Virus record (IMG/VR): IMGVR_UViG_2851966386_000001
Location: 1 to 43,444 of that record
Reading direction: 5' to 3' (one strand)
From: a virus
Lineage: Duplodnaviria; Heunggongvirae; Uroviricota; Caudoviricetes
Length of the DNA stretch: 43,444 nucleotides
Of this stretch, positions 1,369 through 43,149 are shown in pieces (position 1 is the stretch's first letter; each line of letters starts with the position of its first letter). The position numbers and the translations under genes were made by a program. Under the pieces are notes generated by a model, which was given only the letters and a program-made list of their open reading frames with translations, was not told where the DNA came from and did no database searches.

Positions 1369-1444
1369 GCCGATATAGCTCAGTTGGTAGAGCAGCGCAT
1401 TCGTAATGCGAAGGTCGTAGGTTCGACTCCTATTATCGGCACCA
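1369..1444 (+). tRNA. thrW: tRNA-Thr (anticodon CGT), prophage attachment-site tRNA
   Basis: 76-nt sequence GCCGATATAGCTCAGTTGGTAGAGCAGCGCATTCGTAATGCG...GGCACCA with a cloverleaf-compatible layout, anticodon loop TTCGTAA and a CCA end; an integrase gene follows immediately. Confidence 0.9.
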
Positions 1445-3516: not shown

Positions 3517-4043
3517 TTGCGTAACTCCGATAACTCGTTAAAGCGTTCCATAAACATCCCGTAGGCATGGCCCGGTGCCAGTGGAATCACGTTGAACATC
3601 TCTGTTGCCGGGATACCTTCCAGTACAGGCCAGAAAGAGCCATCATCAAGCCCGAGATCGCGGCGTTCGGTTGCCAGCATGATGAGATCGGCATATTTCA
3701 CGGGCGTACTCATAACTGGGGGTAACCCGTATTTCTCACGGATTACGGCGTCTATTTTTTCTTCCATTTGTTTATAGTCAGGAAGAAGGCGTTTCAGTGG
3801 TGCGGGAATGTCCTGGCAATACGCTTCTGTTGCATCATGCATTAACGCTTCAAAAGCAAATTCCTGCGGCACCAGCTGGCTGCAAAGAACCGCATGTTGG
3901 GCGACGCTGTAGAAGTGCGAAAGATGACCGGCAAAGCGACAGATATTTGAAAGGGAAACCGCGATATCGTTAATATCGATGTCGTCTTTATTTATCCTGT
4001 CATAATAAAAATGCTTCCCGGAAAAAGTTTTAATAAATGACAT
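3507..4043 (-). CDS. HD-domain phosphohydrolase, 5-prime-deoxynucleotidase-like (YfdR-like, 178 aa)
   Basis: H...HD motif (SVAQHAV...LMHDATEAY). Start chosen at the internal ATG at 4043, which has a GGAGA RBS; the upstream ATG at 4070 lacks one. Confidence 0.7.
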   Translation of the reverse strand: MSFIKTFSGKHFYYDRINKDDIDINDIAVSLSNICRFAGHLSHFYSVAQHAVLCSQLVPQEFAFEALMHDATEAYCQDIPAPLKRLLPDYKQMEEKIDAVIREKYGLPPVMSTPVKYADLIMLATERRDLGLDDGSFWPVLEGIPATEMFNVIPLAPGHAYGMFMERFNELSELRKCA

Positions 4044-4170
4044 TTTGTTCTCCACGTATATGCGCTGCACCGCGCTGAATTCTGGTAAAAAGAATCCCTC
4101 ACCATCCGGCGATTATTGAGTAAATTACGTTTCCATAAATGCCCCCGCAGGGGCATTTGCAGTAATGAAA

Positions 4171-4995
4171 TCAGGCGGTGAAAGTACCAATAAAGGTTTC
4201 TACTTTGCTGTCCTTGAATTTCTCAACAAGCAGATCACGAAATTCGTTAGCCATTTCTTCCTGCACCGCCTCCAGCTGAATAATGCGCAGAACCAGTACA
4301 GGACGATCGCCAGTGATAATACTGAGGCGTAATTTAAACGGACGTTCTTTCAGACCTTCAAACGGAACGCATTTAAATTCAAATGCCACTGGCATAATGT
4401 CTTTGGTCTTCGCTTCGACAGACTCCATCAGGGAGCGTTTGCCGCTGAAGTCATTATCTTCAAAATCAGCGGTCTGGTTTGCTTCAATCGTGATTTTACG
4501 GACAGCCGCAGCCGCTTTTGTTGCCTGAATAGCGTCACCATTAGCATCAAAGCCCACAAGATAGTCGGCCCAGTCTTCAATCCATTCTGCTAGTGACTTC
4601 TGGGAGTTACGCTCGCCGTTAACAGACAACAGAGCAGAGAACGGTGCTGTCTTTTTCAGTTTGAGTGTGGCGGTGTTATCTGCGTGACCTGGTTCATCAA
4701 TAGTACCTAGGTTAAGCACACTGACGGCACGCATATTATCAGCATCGATAAAGCAGCGGGTGCCTTCATCTGCAAGATCTTTAGAATAACGGGTAAAATC
4801 ATCGATGCTGGCAGTGGAAAGCGTACCACGGAAACGGAAGCGATTTAAATTAAATTTTTCCAGATCATGAATGCGGAAATTCTCAGGCAATGCCACAGCA
4901 TCGGCACCAATCTTACTGATAATTTCATTAACACCCTGAGCAGAAATAAGGGCATGGATTTGATTAATTGCGGTTGCGTCTAAGTTCTGAGACAT
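4171..4995 (-). CDS. DUF2303 family phage protein (YfdQ-like, 274 aa)
   Basis: 274-aa ORF; sequence resembles YfdQ of the CPS-53 prophage as recalled; preserved gene order with the HD-domain and DUF551 genes. Confidence 0.65.
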
Positions 4996-5060
4996 AATAA
5001 GTCCTCACTATATAAAGATATTCAGTGATGAGATAAATAATCAGTTAATTAAAAACGATA

Positions 5061-5423
5061 TTAACGACCTGCTGCGCGGAGTTTTCCGTCAGGTTCACCG
5101 GCAAGAGTCAGCAACTGTCCCTGGTCTTCCTGCAGAATAGTCAGGCGACCACCGCGATTGACATACATCGGCGTTTCGGTGGTGTCTTCTTCGGAAATTT
5201 TCCCGCGGTTAGTCGGGCGAACATATGAGAGTTTGTGTTTGATTTTCACTCGGTTCTCATCAAACGGTTCGATTTCTAGGTTGAGCGAGACCTTACCTTT
5301 GGTTTTCGTGTTCATCACACCGGAAGCGACTTCACTGAGAACTGCGCCGATTTTGGTTTCAAATACGCCGCCGTCCAGCTCCCCGATAAATGCCTGCACA
5401 TCAGTACTGCGTTCGCTAGCCAT
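5061..5423 (-). CDS. Hypothetical early-left protein (YfdP-like, 120 aa)
   Basis: Start chosen at ATG 5423 (MASERSTDVQ...) preceded by a GAGGAG RBS 8 nt upstream; the longer track ORF lacks an RBS and runs into a structured GC-rich region. Confidence 0.6.
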   Translation of the reverse strand: MASERSTDVQAFIGELDGGVFETKIGAVLSEVASGVMNTKTKGKVSLNLEIEPFDENRVKIKHKLSYVRPTNRGKISEEDTTETPMYVNRGGRLTILQEDQGQLLTLAGEPDGKLRAAGR

Positions 5424-5893
5424 TTTGCTGCTCCTCATCATATCGACCCTGCAAGGTCGGTTGGTTTCTCCACAAAACAGAGAAGAACACCTGCGGTGGC
5501 AGCCGCCCGGATGGATTGGGTTATGAGCCCGTCGTCCGGTGATGCTCTTCTCTGTTTTGCAAAAAAGGACGGTACCAGCCGGAAGCAAGGGTACAAACTG
5601 GTACCGCCAGGACTACACACAGCATAAAGTTGTGGTGCCGGGTGCCTCCCGGTGCCTGGCGAAGGTTGCACACCAGGCGGGTGGGTATCCACAGAAGGTC
5701 GACTGTCAGCCTCAACCTTAACCCGCGTGCGCTGAGCCGCATTCACCACAACGCTAAGGATTCTCTCTGGTTGAAAATACTTAGCTGTTATGTGCCTGCT
5801 TTTAGCCACATCAGGCGAGGTGGACCTGGTTATTCCCCAACAACAAGGATTCGGTTAATCTGGATATCCCCAACAACAATAAGAGTATTCAAT

Positions 5894-6409
5894 GTGATCG
5901 CTGAATTAACGGCAGCAATGACGGCTATTCGTGAAATCGCCCAGATTGCAAAACTAATGAACGAGGCAAAAACTCAAGCTGAAGTAAATGCGGCTATTGG
6001 TGAGCTGAACTCAAAGCTTGCGTCTATTCAGCGCGAATGCGTGTCTCTCGTTGAACTGCTGGGCTCTTATCAAGAAATAAATGCTTCTCTCAAAGCTAAA
6101 ATTGCAGAATTCGAAAACTTTGAGGCTCAGACGGAAGGCTATATCCTTAACCAACTTGAGTCGGGTACTTTTGTATACTCGAAGGAGGTAATCGTGAACG
6201 GTGACAGCATAACCATGCATCTTTGCCCAAAATGTTTTGGACAAAAGATAGTATCGATACTTCAACCATTCCCGGTTAGCGAAGATGAGCTTTTTCATAA
6301 AAGCAGGTGCCTCCACTGTGAAAATAAGTTTCTGATGAATAAAAATCCGGATTACGTATCGCCTCCATCCATTGAGGAGTTGGCCAGAAAACTTAACGGC
6401 AATCTGTAG
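5894..6409 (+). CDS. Coiled-coil protein with C-terminal C4 zinc ribbon (CPKC...x21...CLHC); unknown function, candidate exclusion/defence moron
   Basis: GTG at 5894 (AAGAG 10 nt upstream) or ATG at 5918; lower GC than flanks; followed by an intrinsic terminator. Plus strand between the minus-strand early-left operon and cI, convergent with the inferred pL. Confidence 0.55.
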   Translation: MIAELTAAMTAIREIAQIAKLMNEAKTQAEVNAAIGELNSKLASIQRECVSLVELLGSYQEINASLKAKIAEFENFEAQTEGYILNQLESGTFVYSKEVIVNGDSITMHLCPKCFGQKIVSILQPFPVSEDELFHKSRCLHCENKFLMNKNPDYVSPPSIEELARKLNGNL

Positions 6410-6447
6410 ATTGCTACTGTTGTGGATATCCAGATTGTTAAAGAGCT

Positions 6448-6472
6448 AAGCGTCCTGTAGGGCGCTTTTTTG
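6448..6472 (+). terminator. Intrinsic terminator after the zinc-ribbon gene
   Basis: Hairpin AGCGTCC-TGTA-GGGCGCT (one G-U pair) followed by TTTTTTG. Confidence 0.6.
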
Positions 6473-6557
6473 TTGCTAACGAATCATCCTGGACTTCATA
6501 TGCCCCAGGCGGCTACTTCGTGGGCGTCCTGCCTGTTCGTTATCTTTGATATAAAAT

Positions 6558-6571
6558 CTAACTTAACTTAG
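6558..6571. promoter_or_regulatory. oL-like operator (CTAAC-TTAA-CTTAG) with putative leftward pL
   Basis: Matches the palindromic operator form found at oR; lies just beyond the cI stop; further CTTAG half-sites at 6603, 6616 and 6636; candidate TTGCCA/TAGATT promoter elements on the minus strand. Confidence 0.45.
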
Positions 6572-6636
6572 TTATTATGGCAAGAGAAAACACCAAACTT
6601 TTCTTAGTTCGGTGCCTTAGTTAGAGAAGAGAGGTC

Positions 6637-7263
6637 TTAGAGTTCGTATTGAACTCCTTTGACTACACCAATGATAAGGCAATTACCATTGATAGGGATG
6701 TTGGGATACCGAGGATTTAATGGCACTAAAAACTTTTGAGGGCCATCGATGACTAATTTTTTTACTGTAGCTTCGTTTGTTCCATCAAGTCGAGCGATGA
6801 CTATTTTTCCATGACGAGGTTCTGCATCTGGATCTACAATCACTGTTGCGCCTTCTGGTATTGTTGGGAGGCCATTAGGGTTAGTCATGGAGTCACCTTT
6901 AACCTCTAATGCAAATGAGTTATCACCAATCTTTAATGATGTATCTACCCACTTGTCCACTTCACTAAACACTTCTGCTGCCCTGCACTCAGTAAACTGC
7001 CCAGCCTGAACCCACGATATTACAGGAACTCTGCGCATGTTTGTGACGAGTTTGCCTTCAAACTCAGCACCATAAAGAATGTAATCTATTGACGTATTGA
7101 AGAACTTCGCTAATTTCGAAAGTGCCTCCCCACCAGGGGTATTGATGTCTTTCTCCCAGTACCCCACAGCAACGTCGCTTACTCCACAAAATTTACCCAA
7201 TTCTTTCTGGGACGTTCCGGTAACTCTTCTCAGAGCTTTTATACGCTGACCAACCGTTTCCAT
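6637..7263 (-). CDS. cI: CI-type immunity repressor (HTH_XRE plus S24 LexA-like peptidase)
   Basis: N-terminal HTH, an Ala-Gly autocleavage site (WVQAGQF), and a GDSM...KK Ser/Lys dyad; divergent from cro. Confidence 0.9.
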   Translation of the reverse strand: METVGQRIKALRRVTGTSQKELGKFCGVSDVAVGYWEKDINTPGGEALSKLAKFFNTSIDYILYGAEFEGKLVTNMRRVPVISWVQAGQFTECRAAEVFSEVDKWVDTSLKIGDNSFALEVKGDSMTNPNGLPTIPEGATVIVDPDAEPRHGKIVIARLDGTNEATVKKLVIDGPQKFLVPLNPRYPNIPINGNCLIIGVVKGVQYEL

Positions 7264-7285: not shown

Positions 7286-7348
7286 CTAAGTAATCTTAGT
7301 TTTTATTGACCAAAGATAGATTTGTAATTAGCATCTAATAAAACTTAG
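7286..7348. promoter_or_regulatory. oR operator region with pR/pRM
   Basis: Two 14-bp palindromes, CTAAGTAATCTTAG (7286..7299) and CTAATAAAACTTAG (7335..7348), between divergent cI and cro; candidate pR -35 TTGACC (7306..7311) and -10 TAGCAT (7329..7334). Confidence 0.6.
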
Positions 7349-7360
7349 TTTGGAGGGCGT

Positions 7361-7561
7361 ATGACAACTGACGATATCGAAAGCTACTTCGGCAGTATTG
7401 AGAAAGTTGCTGCTTTTTTCGGCATAACAACTGAAGCCGTTTATCAGTGGCGAAACCGTCCGGGCCAGTTAATTCCAAAAGGACGTGCAGCAGAAGCTGC
7501 ATATAGAACTTGCGGACGGTTGCCATTTAAACCTGAGCTTTATGAAAAATCTAATGGATAA
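7361..7561 (+). CDS. cro: Cro-like repressor (66 aa)
   Basis: Small HTH protein divergent from cI; GGAGGG RBS upstream of the ATG. Confidence 0.8.
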   Translation: MTTDDIESYFGSIEKVAAFFGITTEAVYQWRNRPGQLIPKGRAAEAAYRTCGRLPFKPELYEKSNG

Positions 7562-8150
7562 ATCGATTAACAGAAACCACAGAACGATGAGGCTAACCGT
7601 GGGTAAGCATCACTGGAAAGTAGAAAAACAGCCTGAGTGGTACGTGAAAGCTGTCAGAAAAACTATCGCAGCGTTGCCGGGTGGTTACGCTGAAGCAGCT
7701 GACTGGCTGGATGTAACAGAAAACGCATTATTTAACCGCCTTCGTGCCGATGGCGATCAGATTTTCCCGCTGGGATGGGCAATGATTTTGCAACGTGCTG
7801 GTGGAACTCACTTCATTGCTGACGCTGTGGCGCAGTCTGCAAATGGCGTCTTTGTGTCTCTTCCTGACGTCGAGGATGTGGACAACGCCGATATTAACCA
7901 GCGCCTGCTGGAAGTCATTGAACAGATTGGCAGTTATTCCAGACAGATTCGTTCGGCAATCGAAGACGGTGTGGTGGAACCGCATGAGAAGACAGCAATT
8001 AACGACGAGCTGTATCTCTCAATTTCGAAGCTGCAGGAGCATGCAGCACTGGTCTACAAAATCTTTTGCATTTCAGAAAGTAATGACGCCCGCGAGTGTG
8101 CAGCTCCGGGCGCCGTGGCGTGTCGTGACTGTGGAGAAACTAACGCATGA
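7542..8150 (+). CDS. Hypothetical regulatory protein in the cII position (about 202 aa)
   Basis: ATG at 7542 overlapping the cro 3 prime end (an alternative ATG is at 7554); acidic and Cys-containing C-terminus; no confident family assignment. Confidence 0.5.
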
Positions 8151-8485
8151 ACAGTTTAACAACACACTACCGTCGCTCGCAACTGATTGCGCTTCCTGTA
8201 CCGGGTGGAAAAGCGAAGGTGGAGTATTGCTATGCAGTTAATGTACCAGGTGACAGGGAAATTGTAACCCACAGCTTTGCTGAGTGGGCTGTGGGTGATT
8301 TCAACCGGCAGAAGGAGACAGTCCTTTGCGACAAGTTAACCGCTGGTTCAAAGATCACTACGGAGTGCCCGTCAGAGTCATTCGTTGGGAGCCGGAAACA
8401 CAACGAGTTATCTACCTCCGCGAAGGCTATGAGCATGAGTGCTTCAGCCCGCTCGAACAGTTTCGTCGTAAATTCAGGGAAATAG
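8147..8485 (+). CDS. Hypothetical protein (uncertain frame; see alternative ORF 8326..8505)
   Basis: ATG with a GGAGA RBS and an ATGA overlap with the upstream gene, but the C-terminal half is low-complexity. A second frame (TTG 8326, AAGGAGA RBS) gives a more protein-like 59-aa product ending at 8505. Confidence 0.35.
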
Positions 8486-8494
8486 AGGTCGGTC

Positions 8495-9436
8495 ATGAGC
8501 ACTAAATTAACCGGCTATGTATGGGATGGTTGCGCTGCATCAGGCATGAAATTATCCAGCGTGGCAATTATGGCCCGCCTGGCTGATTTCAGTAATGACG
8601 AAGGTGTGTGCTGGCCATCAATTGAAACCATTGCCCGTCAGATTGGCGCGGGGATGAGTACCGTCAGAACGGCTATCGCACGGCTGGAAGCAGAAGGCTG
8701 GTTAACGCGTAAGGCGCGTCGCCAGGGTAACCGCAATGCGTCGAATGTTTATCAGCTTAACGTTGCGAAGCTTCAGGCAGCGGCATTTTCTCAACTGTCA
8801 GATTCTGACCCGTCAAAATCTGACGCATCAAAATCTGACACGTCAAAATTTGATGCGTCGAAATCTGGCAAAAAAGCGGGTTTTCACCCGTCAGAATCTG
8901 GCGGGGATCCGTCAGTAAAATCAAAACATGATCCGTCAGATAAAAAACCTTCTCGTCCGGACGCTTCGCAACCGGACACGCAGACGGCTGAACAGGATTT
9001 TTTAACTCGCCATCCTGACGCGGTTGTATTCAGCCCTAAAAAGCGCCAGTGGGGAACGCAGGATGATTTGACCTGCGCACAGTGGCTCTGGAAAAAAATC
9101 ATTGCCCTGTACGAGCAGGCCGCCGAATGTGACGGCGAGGTGGTTCGTCCCAAAGAACCGAACTGGACAGCATGGGCAAACGAAATTCGCCTGATGTGTG
9201 TGCAGGATGGTCGTACTCACAAACAAATCTGCGAGATGTACAGCCGCGTCAGCCGCGATCCGTTCTGGTGCCGTAACGTGCTCAGCCCGTCGAAGTTGCG
9301 GGAAAAATGGGATGAGCTTTCCCTGCGCTTATCGCCATCCGTCAGCACGCACACAGAAAAACGTGAAGACCCGTACTTCAAAGCCAGTTACGACAACGTG
9401 GACTACAGCCAGATCCCGGCAGGATTCAGGGGGTGA
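8495..9436 (+). CDS. Replication initiator (O-like; N-terminal winged-helix, internal iteron-encoded repeat linker)
   Basis: AGAGG RBS; N-terminal HTH region; the Ser/Asp/Lys repeat linker (SDPSKSDASKSDTSKFDASKS) is encoded by DNA iterons, as in lambda O where ori lies inside the gene. Confidence 0.7.
   Translation: MSTKLTGYVWDGCAASGMKLSSVAIMARLADFSNDEGVCWPSIETIARQIGAGMSTVRTAIARLEAEGWLTRKARRQGNRNASNVYQLNVAKLQAAAFSQLSDSDPSKSDASKSDTSKFDASKSGKKAGFHPSESGGDPSVKSKHDPSDKKPSRPDASQPDTQTAEQDFLTRHPDAVVFSPKKRQWGTQDDLTCAQWLWKKIIALYEQAAECDGEVVRPKEPNWTAWANEIRLMCVQDGRTHKQICEMYSRVSRDPFWCRNVLSPSKLREKWDELSLRLSPSVSTHTEKREDPYFKASYDNVDYSQIPAGFRG
8808..8945. repeat. Origin-like iterons (4 tandem 15-bp TCAAAATCTGAC-type repeats, then 4 CCGTCAG-type repeats) inside the initiator gene
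   Basis: Direct repeats CGTCAAAATCTGAC / CATCAAAATCTGAC / CGTCAAAATTTGAT / CGTCGAAATCTGGC, followed by CCGTCAGAATCTGG, CCGTCAGTAAAATC and CCGTCAGATAAAAAACC. Confidence 0.65.
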
Positions 9437-41935: not shown

Positions 41936-42826
41936 TCAGGCTGCCAGATCATCGTTTCCGATGGAAGCATAATAAGCTTTTTCTGCTTCTGCCGGAGGAG
42001 TATGGCCCAGCCTTTCCAGCAATCGTCGATTGTTATACCAGTCCACCCACGTGAGTGTGGCCAGTTCCACTTCTGCACGGTTTTTCCAGCTCTTACGGTG
42101 TATTACCTCCGCTTTGTAAAGACCATTGATGCTCTCCGCCATCGCGTTGTCATACGAGTCGCCTGTACTTCCTGTTGATGCCAGTAATCCGGCTTCCTTA
42201 AGCCGCTGTGTGTAGGCCAGCGATACATACTGAGAACCTTTATCACTGTGATGGACCGTGCCGGACGGTCGACGGGCCCATAACGCCTGCTCCAGTGCAT
42301 CCAGCACGAATGTCGTTTCCATGGACGATGAGACCCGCCACCCCACGATGTATCCGGCAAACACATCAATGATGAACGCCACATAGACGAAGCCCCGCCA
42401 TGTGCTGACGTAAGTAAAATCAGCCACCCACAGCTGGTCAGGTCGTTCTGCCACGAACTGACGGTTTACGCGGTCGCCTGCGGCAACGGCTTTCCGGCTG
42501 ATGGTCGTACGGACCTTTTTACCCCGGAGAACACCGGCAAGTCCCATAACCGCCATGAGACGTGCCACAGTGCATCTGGCCACTCTGATACCTTCCCGTA
42601 ACAACTGACGCCAGACTTTACGCACACCGTATACCTTGTGATTTTCATCGTATACGCGCTGTATCTCTTTCTTCAGCCAGTCATCGCGCTGCGCACGGGC
42701 ACTGCGTTTATCCGGATGATGTCGCTGTTGCTGACAGTGGTAATACGTTGACGGGGCAATATGCAGTTCGCTGCATAGCGGTCCGACCCCGTACTGCTCA
42801 CGCAGCTTATCCAGCAGTGGCATCAT
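41936..42826 (-). CDS. IS3-family transposase OrfB (DDE integrase domain)
   Basis: 296-aa ORF with a DDE-type catalytic region (…DFTYV…HSDKGSQY…DNAMAES…) downstream of orfA. Confidence 0.9.
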
Positions 42827-43149
42827 TTTTTCCAGAGGCGGTCGAACTCCGCCTTCGCAAAATAAGCGGAAGCCTGGCGAAGGATATCGTTACTGCGGCG
42901 CAGTTCACGATTTTCACGTTCCAGCTCTTTCAGACGCTGACGTTCAGCGGTGGTGAGCCCTCCATCACCGCCCCCGGTATCCCGCTCATGCTGGCGAACC
43001 CAGACACGCAGAGTCTCCGGCGTACAGCCAATCTTTGGAGCAATGGAACAAATTGTCGCCCATTGTGAGTCATATTCGCTCTGACTTTCCAGAACCATAC
43101 GGACTGCCCGTTGACGGACTTCGGGGGAAAAACGAGTATTTTTAGTCAT
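42823..43149 (-). CDS. IS3-family transposase OrfA (HTH)
   Basis: 108-aa [56 protein letters not shown]... with a leucine-zipper-like C-terminus; the stop overlaps the orfB start at an A-rich run (TGGAAAAAATGATG). Confidence 0.9.

Follow-up and report, generated by a model that had tools for sequence, protein, structure and literature searches.

We examined a stretch of 43,444 nucleotides (nt) of the IMG/VR virus record IMGVR_UViG_2851966386_000001 (hereafter, the window, meaning this whole stretch), focusing on one open reading frame (ORF) at positions 5894-6409 of the plus strand, in the immunity-proximal region of a prophage. The ORF has the layout of a single gene on a prophage, namely, a lone plus-strand gene that has its own terminator and lies between minus-strand phage genes, and very probably encodes a member of the Rip1 (ring interacting pore 1) family of defence proteins. 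A preliminary description of this DNA, made from the letters of the sequence, had placed here a plus-strand ORF of about 170 amino acids (aa), preceded by two copies of a short repeat and followed by a terminator. All these elements were recovered: the ORF as a gene of 171 aa at 5894-6409, the repeats as exact copies of TCCCCAACAACAA at both positions, and the terminator as a stem at 6448-6467 followed by a T run (TTTTGTTG). The gene and the elements that bracket it are the following.

5794..5893, plus strand: conserved leader of the slot, about 100 nt
5834..5846, plus strand: direct repeat, copy 1, TCCCCAACAACAA, in the loop of a covarying hairpin
5857..5875, no strand assigned: left arm of an inverted repeat, AATCTGGATATCCCCAACA
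5867..5879, plus strand: direct repeat, copy 2, TCCCCAACAACAA, directly 5' of the Shine-Dalgarno-like sequence and overlapping the left arm of the inverted repeat
5881..5885, plus strand: Shine-Dalgarno-like AAGAG, 8 nt 5' of the GTG
5894..6409, plus strand: predicted Rip1-family gene, 171 aa, GTG start 5894, TAG stop 6409
6418..6436, no strand assigned: right arm of the inverted repeat, TGTTGTGGATATCCAGATT
6435..6447, minus strand: putative rrn-type boxA, AGCUCUUUAACAA compared with UGCUCUUUAACAA, 12 of 13 positions
6448..6475, plus strand: intrinsic terminator belonging to the ORF, AAGCGTCC-TGTA-GGGCGCTT and then a T run

A phmmer search of PDB sequences with the 171-aa protein yielded a single match among solved structures, chain L of 9oox, named 'ring interacting pore 1' (E=6.3e-7; residues 8-150 of the query against 22-159 of the 164 residues of the chain), and both cysteine pairs line up in this alignment. 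The entry is entitled 'Escherichia phage HK446 Rip1 in complex with the Enterobacteria phage T6 small terminase'. A database search retrieved 121 relatives of the ORF, all named hypothetical and mostly from Enterobacterales, and several genera have homologues in their prophages. Built from 45 homologues with sequence identity to the ORF as low as 41%, a profile matched 9oox chain L with E=1.5e-19 (73.5 bits; profile positions 5-156 of 169 against chain positions 15-160 of 164), the next match having E=0.11, and hhalign gave probabilities of 98.8% to HK446 Rip1 and 99.3% to gp30 of Pseudomonas phage JBD30, one of the homologues known from Mu-like prophages of P. aeruginosa. The AlphaFold2 model of the ORF product (mean predicted local distance difference test score 89.5) consists of helices at residues 2-24 and 28-79 and a beta-rich domain at 84-150. 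When this model was compared with the PDB using Foldseek, only 9oox_L and 9oox_M were retrieved (E=4.5e-7 and 6.9e-7, probability 1.00), with target-normalised template modelling scores of 0.53-0.72 over 120 aligned columns, the solved chains covering only about 125 residues, so that the far N-terminus lies outside the fold comparison; the next PDB match had E=0.27. Structure prediction and remote homology search, the two approaches that the preliminary description had proposed for this protein, both point to Rip1 (9oox), in fold as well as in sequence.

Residues Q46, L66, Y83, V94-Y95 and I122-L123, together with all four cysteines, are invariant across the ORF, HK446 Rip1, HK620 HkaP, and JBD30 gp30. 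These cysteines, C111, C114, C139, and C142, form the C-terminal CPKC...CLHC pattern that had been noticed earlier (residues 111-114 and 139-142; zinc binding is an assumption); they are conserved in 45 of the 45 homologues and align with those of HK446, HK620, and JBD30. A fifth cysteine, C49, is nearly invariant in the subfamily and is missing from HK446 Rip1. The N-terminal helix is amphipathic, with a hydrophobic moment of 0.42-0.49 (residues 5-30) compared with 0.35-0.41 in HK446 Rip1, and no transmembrane segment is apparent, the maximum Kyte-Doolittle average over 19 residues being 1.05. The net charge is -6 for the ORF product and +3 for HK446 Rip1. The coiled coil previously suspected in the N-terminal region is helical indeed, but the helices are better described as the amphipathic, pore-type helices of Rip1.

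Scans of the ORF against Pfam, NCBIfam, and PADLOC gave nothing significant, and the match in PHROGs is phrog_1244, to which no function is assigned there. The Pfam scan listed 11 weak matches up to E=1, none of them a SieB model; the one PADLOC match was to a Type I restriction enzyme model (E=0.069), and weak, sub-threshold matches to zinc-ribbon models appeared in the library scans. The wider superfamily is large, with 2637 cluster representatives at E<=1e-3 and 917 at E<=1e-10. On the strength of the sequence and fold comparisons, we consider it highly probable that the ORF is a Rip1-family protein. It is a divergent, so far unannotated member of a defence family described in 2026, and the kind of system is already known.

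Rip1 was described by Patel et al. (2026, Nature 651:1060), whose results we take from the account given in a review (PMC13434031); a meeting report is consistent with that account. As the review has it, Rip1 is a single prophage-encoded protein that is non-toxic when present alone, with relatives that are widespread in Proteobacteria and reside chiefly in prophages; in a P. aeruginosa prophage, the gene lies between the genes for the small and large terminase subunits. Escape mutations fall in the portal for phages of Pseudomonas and within the small terminase for those of E. coli. In the structure determined by cryo-electron microscopy (HK446 Rip1 with the T6 small terminase), 12 Rip1 monomers are arranged around an 11-mer ring of the small terminase; the C-terminal half of Rip1 touches the ring, whereas the N-terminal part is an amphipathic helix, and the complex was reported to form pores and to release dye from liposomes (PMC13434031).

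The ORF is a real gene under purifying selection: comparison with the O157-type allele, which is 92-93% identical, gave a ratio of nonsynonymous to synonymous substitution rates (dN/dS) of 0.18-0.24. All 45 aligned homologues start with M-I-A-E-L, and in the Shine-Dalgarno region, G5885 and A5887 are invariant across genera, with G5883 nearly so. The RefSeq call is the identical 171-aa protein, WP_000559916.1, labelled hypothetical, in E. coli WCHEC005784, the chromosome of which is a 100% match to positions 5600-6640 of the window. The mechanical list of ORFs extended the in-frame run back to 5630, and the frame is indeed open for 264 nt upstream of the start (window 5630-5893; see also locus L001, 4262-4990). 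Over-long annotations, of 243 aa in the PhiR29_1 record and of 243 or 186 aa in other database entries, exist because the frame stays open upstream; these 243-aa and 186-aa versions are over-extended and run through the non-coding leader. The region 5600-6640 is covered at 80% or more in 372 of the 5426 complete E. coli genomes (about 7%), and some match to it occurs in 2192; O157:H7 strains are among the E. coli carriers of the ORF.

Comparison of prophages shows that the ORF occupies a swappable slot, with pL/OL (the leftward early promoter and its operators) on one side and the leftward early genes, which are encoded on the other strand, on the other side. Homology with SfIV extends up to 5877 and resumes at 6430; between these points, SfIV encodes a different 144-aa ORF and a small antisense ORF, and the terminator is common to both phages even as the payload differs. 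Homology with PhiR29_1 spans 5000-6541, after which the immunity region differs. A scan of viral contigs with 18 nt of the leader identified more than 100 loci, and in 125 loci, leader and trailer bracket 430-900 nt. The slot contains at least three unrelated families: Rip1-like proteins, proteins of about 150 aa (phrog_6315), and the ECs1072 family (phrog_5286), the last often accompanied by an antisense ORF of about 75 aa. No Pfam match, and hence none to SieB, was obtained for these alternative payloads. The phrog_6315 and ECs1072 families, to which no function is assigned, are candidate defence genes.

In E. coli O157:H7 Wll001 (locus L023), positions 4001-4661 correspond to 5786-6446 of the window, that is, to the leader, the gene, and the left part of the trailer, with 93.5% identity. 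This copy resides in a different prophage backbone, one with a RacR repressor, beside potD and between an exonuclease remnant and the DUF1391/racR genes. Given this near-identical module in a RacR-type backbone, the module moves between prophage types. The corresponding position in the Rac prophage of K-12 is the one where sieB lies. We did not find a description of a holder composed of leader, trailer, and boxA with interchangeable payloads.

At the nucleotide level, identity across 17 loci of other genera is 73-93% for the leader and mostly 84-92% for the trailer, compared with 60-68% for the coding sequence (protein identity, 42-60%). The direct repeats are kept in other genera, and this cross-genus conservation is better evidence for them than the chance statistic. 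The two copies read AAC-AAC-AAG and AAC-AAC-AAU-AAG. They resemble motifs of the (AAN)n type, which are bound by Hfq or serve as translation enhancers; this is a lead rather than a result. The repeats are part of a leader that every payload of the slot has in common, and they are most likely (AAN)n-type elements for protein binding or translation control in the 5' untranslated region. By their consensus motifs, they might be read as CsrA or Hfq sites.

Several helices can be drawn in the leader RNA. The candidate pairings are GCCUG (5794-5798) with CAGGC (5812-5816), CCAC (5806-5809) with GUGG (5820-5823), and a hairpin around 5822-5828 with 5846-5852 that holds the first direct repeat in its loop. 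When 40 distinct leaders were fitted to this three-helix model, 94.6% of the cells were paired, compared with 22-50% with the partners slid; six pairs changed on both sides, and none of 500 shuffles scored as high, the alignment having been chosen by an exact 18-nt motif and the sequences being related to each other. The best-supported helix covaries at four of its five pairs (for example, GGAUCC/GGAUUC and GGUUUCC/GGAAAUC), stems A and B each rest on one sequence (L041), and in the copy present in the window, the covarying helix is weakened by a one-base deletion. RNAalifold by itself recovered one of the three proposed stems. The leader structure is therefore based on the covariation counts, because folding energies and RNAalifold contribute little. 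The U-G pairs favour the sense strand, and some of the mismatches would be wobble pairs on the opposite strand. In many other backbones (for example, loci L034, L040, and L116), a minus-strand gene that starts ATGAAAGCGCAC begins about 8 nt to the left of the leader; in those backbones, the strand complementary to the leader provides the 5' untranslated region for the gene that comes next in the pL operon.

The ORF is bracketed exactly by a 19-nt inverted repeat with 18 of 19 positions complementary, and its core (AATCTGGATATCC / GGATATCCAGATT) recurs in other genera as well as around different payloads. The inverted repeat looks like a split palindrome; a search of viral contigs for an empty site, with the payload inserted into the palindrome AATCTGGATATCCAGATT, gave no exact copy. 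Pairing of the 5' and 3' parts of the RNA, a protein binding site, and a recombination handle are all possibilities for its role. An invertible segment between the arms was also considered and rejected: in none of the payload clusters examined (125 loci in total) does the main payload ORF change direction with respect to leader and trailer.

The slot belongs to a prophage of the SfIV/CPS-53 type, the early-left genes of which are the yfdT-yfdP set. The other features of the window to which we refer are these.

1369-1444, plus strand: tRNA-Thr (CGT) gene, beside the integrase end of the prophage
5061..5425, minus strand: yfdP, about 1.1 kb downstream of pL; in the leftward early operon, the first protein gene to be annotated
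5559..5782, minus strand: STnc100-like structured RNA region (Rfam RF02076), between the slot and yfdP, on the pL-transcribed strand
6555..6583, minus strand: pL-like promoter, -35 TTGCCA at 6583-6578, 17 nt, -10 TAGATT at 6560-6555
6558..6607, no strand assigned: OL-like operators, CTAACTTAACTTAG at 6558-6571 and CAAACTTTTCTTAG at 6594-6607
6637..7263, minus strand: cI-type repressor (LexA/S24 family), convergent with the ORF
7361-7561, plus strand: cro
42752-42868, minus strand: ALIL pseudoknot (Rfam RF01497), 120 bits, close to the window's right end

The 14-mer CTAA-N5-CTTAG has exact copies in the window only at 6558-6571, 7286-7299, and 7335-7348, and a one-mismatch copy at 6594-6607. 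The OL-like sites match the OR sites at 7286-7299 and 7335-7348, so operator-like sites flank the repressor gene on both sides. The pL-like promoter overlaps the operator-like site at 6558-6571, and it is reasonable to read 6555-6607 as an OL/pL region that would point into the 3' end of the ORF. These sites, together with yfdP at 5061-5425, bear out the earlier placement of the ORF between an oL-like operator and the minus-strand early-left genes; the accompanying claim that pL transcription runs antisense through the ORF is supported as a layout, with the predicted pL directed leftward into the 3' end of the gene.

Because yfdP starts only at 5425, a pL transcript would cross about 1.1 kb that contain no real-looking leftward protein gene, and no N-like gene is found between pL and yfdP. 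Within this stretch, the STnc100-like region is GC-rich (0.57-0.585) and matches RF02076 over the full model length with 40.3 bits (E=4.9e-7), which falls short of the gathering score (47); for the minus strand of 5426-5800, folding gave z=-6.2. Positions 5600-5823 match a stretch annotated as ymfH in E. coli K-12-type strains. The Prokaryotic Genome Annotation Pipeline calls a frameshifted pseudogene in this region. At the ends of the window, the tRNA-Thr (CGT) gene is the likely attachment site because it adjoins the integrase end, and the ALIL pseudoknot presumably marks a frameshift element of the IS3 family.

About 100 nt downstream of the predicted pL, and overlapping the conserved trailer of the slot (6423-6475), lies the boxA-like element. 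Within the 43-kb window, no sequence other than AGCUCUUUAACAA matches the rrn boxA reference, UGCUCUUUAACAA (PMC2724277), with two or fewer mismatches, and trailers at other loci keep this element nearly unchanged. If it recruits Nus factors, boxA would help pL transcription through the long untranslated stretch, including the STnc100-like region. A broader reading can be tentatively drawn for the slot, which we regard as possible but on balance doubtful. The slot might be a two-strand regulatory 'cassette holder' of many enterobacterial prophages, in which the leader repeats and the terminator would drive any defence payload, while the antisense boxA would let pL read through without N, turning on the early-left genes and silencing the defence gene in the lytic cycle; the inverted repeat and the flanks would be the handles for exchange.

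For the gene itself, the explanation that we favour, and that we consider probable, is that it encodes an abortive, pore-forming defence protein of the Rip1 family, placed in a slot antisense to pL. In the lysogen, the protein would be made and would be harmless. Once an invading phage assembles a ring-shaped oligomer, either the small terminase or the portal, the four-cysteine domain would bind around this ring; the bound ring would then template a ring of Rip1, with the N-terminal amphipathic helices forming a membrane pore, and the cell would be permeabilised before the assembly of the invader is completed, which amounts to abortive infection. After induction of the resident prophage, pL transcription would run antisense through the ORF, possibly assisted by the boxA about 100 nt from pL. 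Crossing about 1.1 kb of untranslated RNA, such transcription would arrive at the early-left genes; it would probably also dampen the defence gene while the prophage itself grows lytically. In the case of P22 sieB, the sas antisense RNA controls a defence gene during the growth of the phage itself (PMC12197685, PMC7067206), and given this precedent, damping of the ORF by lytic transcription is reasonable.

Several points weigh against this explanation. A consensus scan of the plus strand at 5400-5893 found no sigma-70-like promoter for a sense transcript of the ORF, and inspection by eye of 62 upstream regions found no conserved -35/-10. On neither strand does the leader fold with a better energy than shuffled sequence. 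For the boxA, there is one sequence match, and a search downstream of pR gave no second one. The identity of the ORF to the characterised Rip1 proteins is only 26-30%, and within the subfamily of 45 homologues, neither the length nor the sequence of the stretch from C114 to C139 is constant. The Rip1 mechanism, as applied to the ORF, is drawn from the review and the title of the PDB entry. Expression in the lysogen and defence activity would follow from homology, and silencing by antisense pL transcription from the arrangement of the genes.

At such identity, and with a variable segment between the cysteine pairs, the trigger, and even the activity, could differ from those of known Rip1. The protein might thus retain the Rip1 fold with a diverged function, sensing another phage structure or acting in a non-lethal manner, for instance, by capping the terminase ring without forming a pore. 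The presence of the nearly invariant C49, which HK446 Rip1 lacks, and the net charges of opposite sign fit this alternative, which we deem unlikely, although it is the most serious of those considered. Against it, the homology spans both the pore-forming helices and the sensor domain, and the amphipathic N-terminus is retained; furthermore, known Rip1 already answers two ring proteins according to the review (PMC13434031), so that even a changed trigger would still be Rip1-like behaviour. A further candidate is a zinc-ribbon regulator of the prophage, for example, one that modulates the repressor, induction, or transcription, rather than a defence protein. The location beside the immunity region and the weak zinc-ribbon matches are compatible with such a role, and four-cysteine zinc ribbons are common in small phage regulators, but no regulatory family in Pfam, NCBIfam, or PHROGs scored significantly, whereas the significant matches in sequence and fold are only to Rip1. 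Moreover, the same gene is found with different immunity regions and prophage backbones, which points to an accessory gene rather than a core regulator, and unrelated payloads fill the slot in other prophages; a regulator is accordingly quite improbable.

The remaining two alternatives appear to be less probable still, and to about the same degree. A SieB-like or other membrane-embedded exclusion protein, acting at DNA entry or early in infection, would suit the sieB-type position and the annotation of hkaP in HK620 as a 'putative superinfection exclusion protein'; such a protein is hard to reconcile with the lack of a transmembrane segment (the hydropathy maximum given above), with the Pfam list at E<=1, in which no SieB model appears, and with homology to a protein that senses assembly proteins and acts late. 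An ORF without function or expression, retained solely by virtue of its position within conserved regulatory DNA, would account for the failure to find a sense promoter and for flanks that are more conserved than the coding sequence. It would account neither for the dN/dS values nor for motifs that are invariant across 45 homologues with identity down to 41%, and the confident AlphaFold2 model and the large family with members that, as the review reports, are experimentally active (PMC13434031) also speak against it. The Rip1-type defence gene, convergent with pL, is hence the reading under which we discuss the locus below.

This reading would assign a probable function to a protein that is labelled hypothetical in RefSeq and in phage records and is present in about 7% of complete E. 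coli genomes; in the versions of Pfam, NCBIfam, PHROGs, and PADLOC that we searched, none names the family of the ORF. Rip1-family genes occupy at least three locations in prophages and are antisense to a lytic operon in every case examined, which suggests that antisense placement generally serves to keep prophages from setting off their own abortive defence. The leader/trailer/boxA module around a swappable payload is compact and, if confirmed, could be a marker for new single-gene defences in enterobacterial prophages; at least two payload families without an assigned function share the slot.

A tblastn search of phage genomes placed relatives of the ORF in three kinds of location, exemplified by HK446, HK620, and JBD30. 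The Rip1 gene of HK446 (HK446_037) is flanked by N and the cIII-side genes and is encoded opposite to pL; hkaP of HK620 lies between hkaQ/N and cIII, likewise on the strand opposite to pL; and JBD30 gp30 lies between gp29 and the large terminase gene, on the strand opposite to both. All three genes oppose a lytic operon, and convergent antisense placement is therefore a recurring property of the family. In addition, a close homologue from Citrobacter is located between int-xis and the repressor gene, and one from Edwardsiella between the exonuclease/RecT genes and N. An Edwardsiella prophage (L148) also carries, at 8105-9157 between N and the repressor gene, a gene with a GmrSD_N domain, besides its Rip1-like gene; this suggests a second defence gene in the same immunity-proximal region.

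The preliminary description had proposed a superinfection-defence gene convergent with pL, and this proposal is supported by the homology to Rip1, the layout of hkaP and of the HK446 gene, the O157:H7 copy, and the OL/pL region. The comparison drawn there with the rexAB slot of lambda holds for position; it does not hold for mechanism, because the homology implies an abortive pore triggered by phage rings rather than exclusion at DNA entry. The rexAB genes are immunity-adjacent and expressed from the prophage, and the likeness consists in prophage-expressed defence genes beside the immunity region. They are two genes co-transcribed with cI, whereas the ORF stands alone, converges with cI, and is homologous to neither rexA nor rexB, so that the comparison is only positional. 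The sieB gene is located in the early-left region, and SieB is a membrane protein with transmembrane helices and an internal Esc product. The resemblance to sieB and sas of P22 and lambda lies in a prophage-expressed, abortive-type defence with antisense transcription across the gene, whereas the ORF has no relationship to SieB in sequence or fold.

Among genes in the early-left region, hkaP of HK620 (HkaP in HK630) is a homologue of the ORF with 28% identity (tblastn E=5e-13) and is convergent with pL. It differs in being located downstream of N and hkaQ, with different flanks, and in that the annotated tL1 terminator lies inside hkaP, on the other strand. A search of the literature on hkaP, HK446, and sieB returned unrelated papers only. 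A conserved leader/trailer cassette encloses the ORF; when the leader was used in a distant DNA search, it was found in neither HK620 nor HK446. It also lies directly between pL/OL and the early-left genes, with no N in between, whereas the HK446 gene is downstream of N and the JBD30 gene is between the terminase subunits. In other respects, the ORF resembles the characterised Rip1 proteins: it encodes a single small protein, of 171 aa compared with 164 aa in HK446; as in HK446 and JBD30, this protein combines N-terminal amphipathic helices with a C-terminal beta domain that contains the same four cysteines; and the gene belongs to a prophage, in which it opposes the lytic operon that surrounds it.

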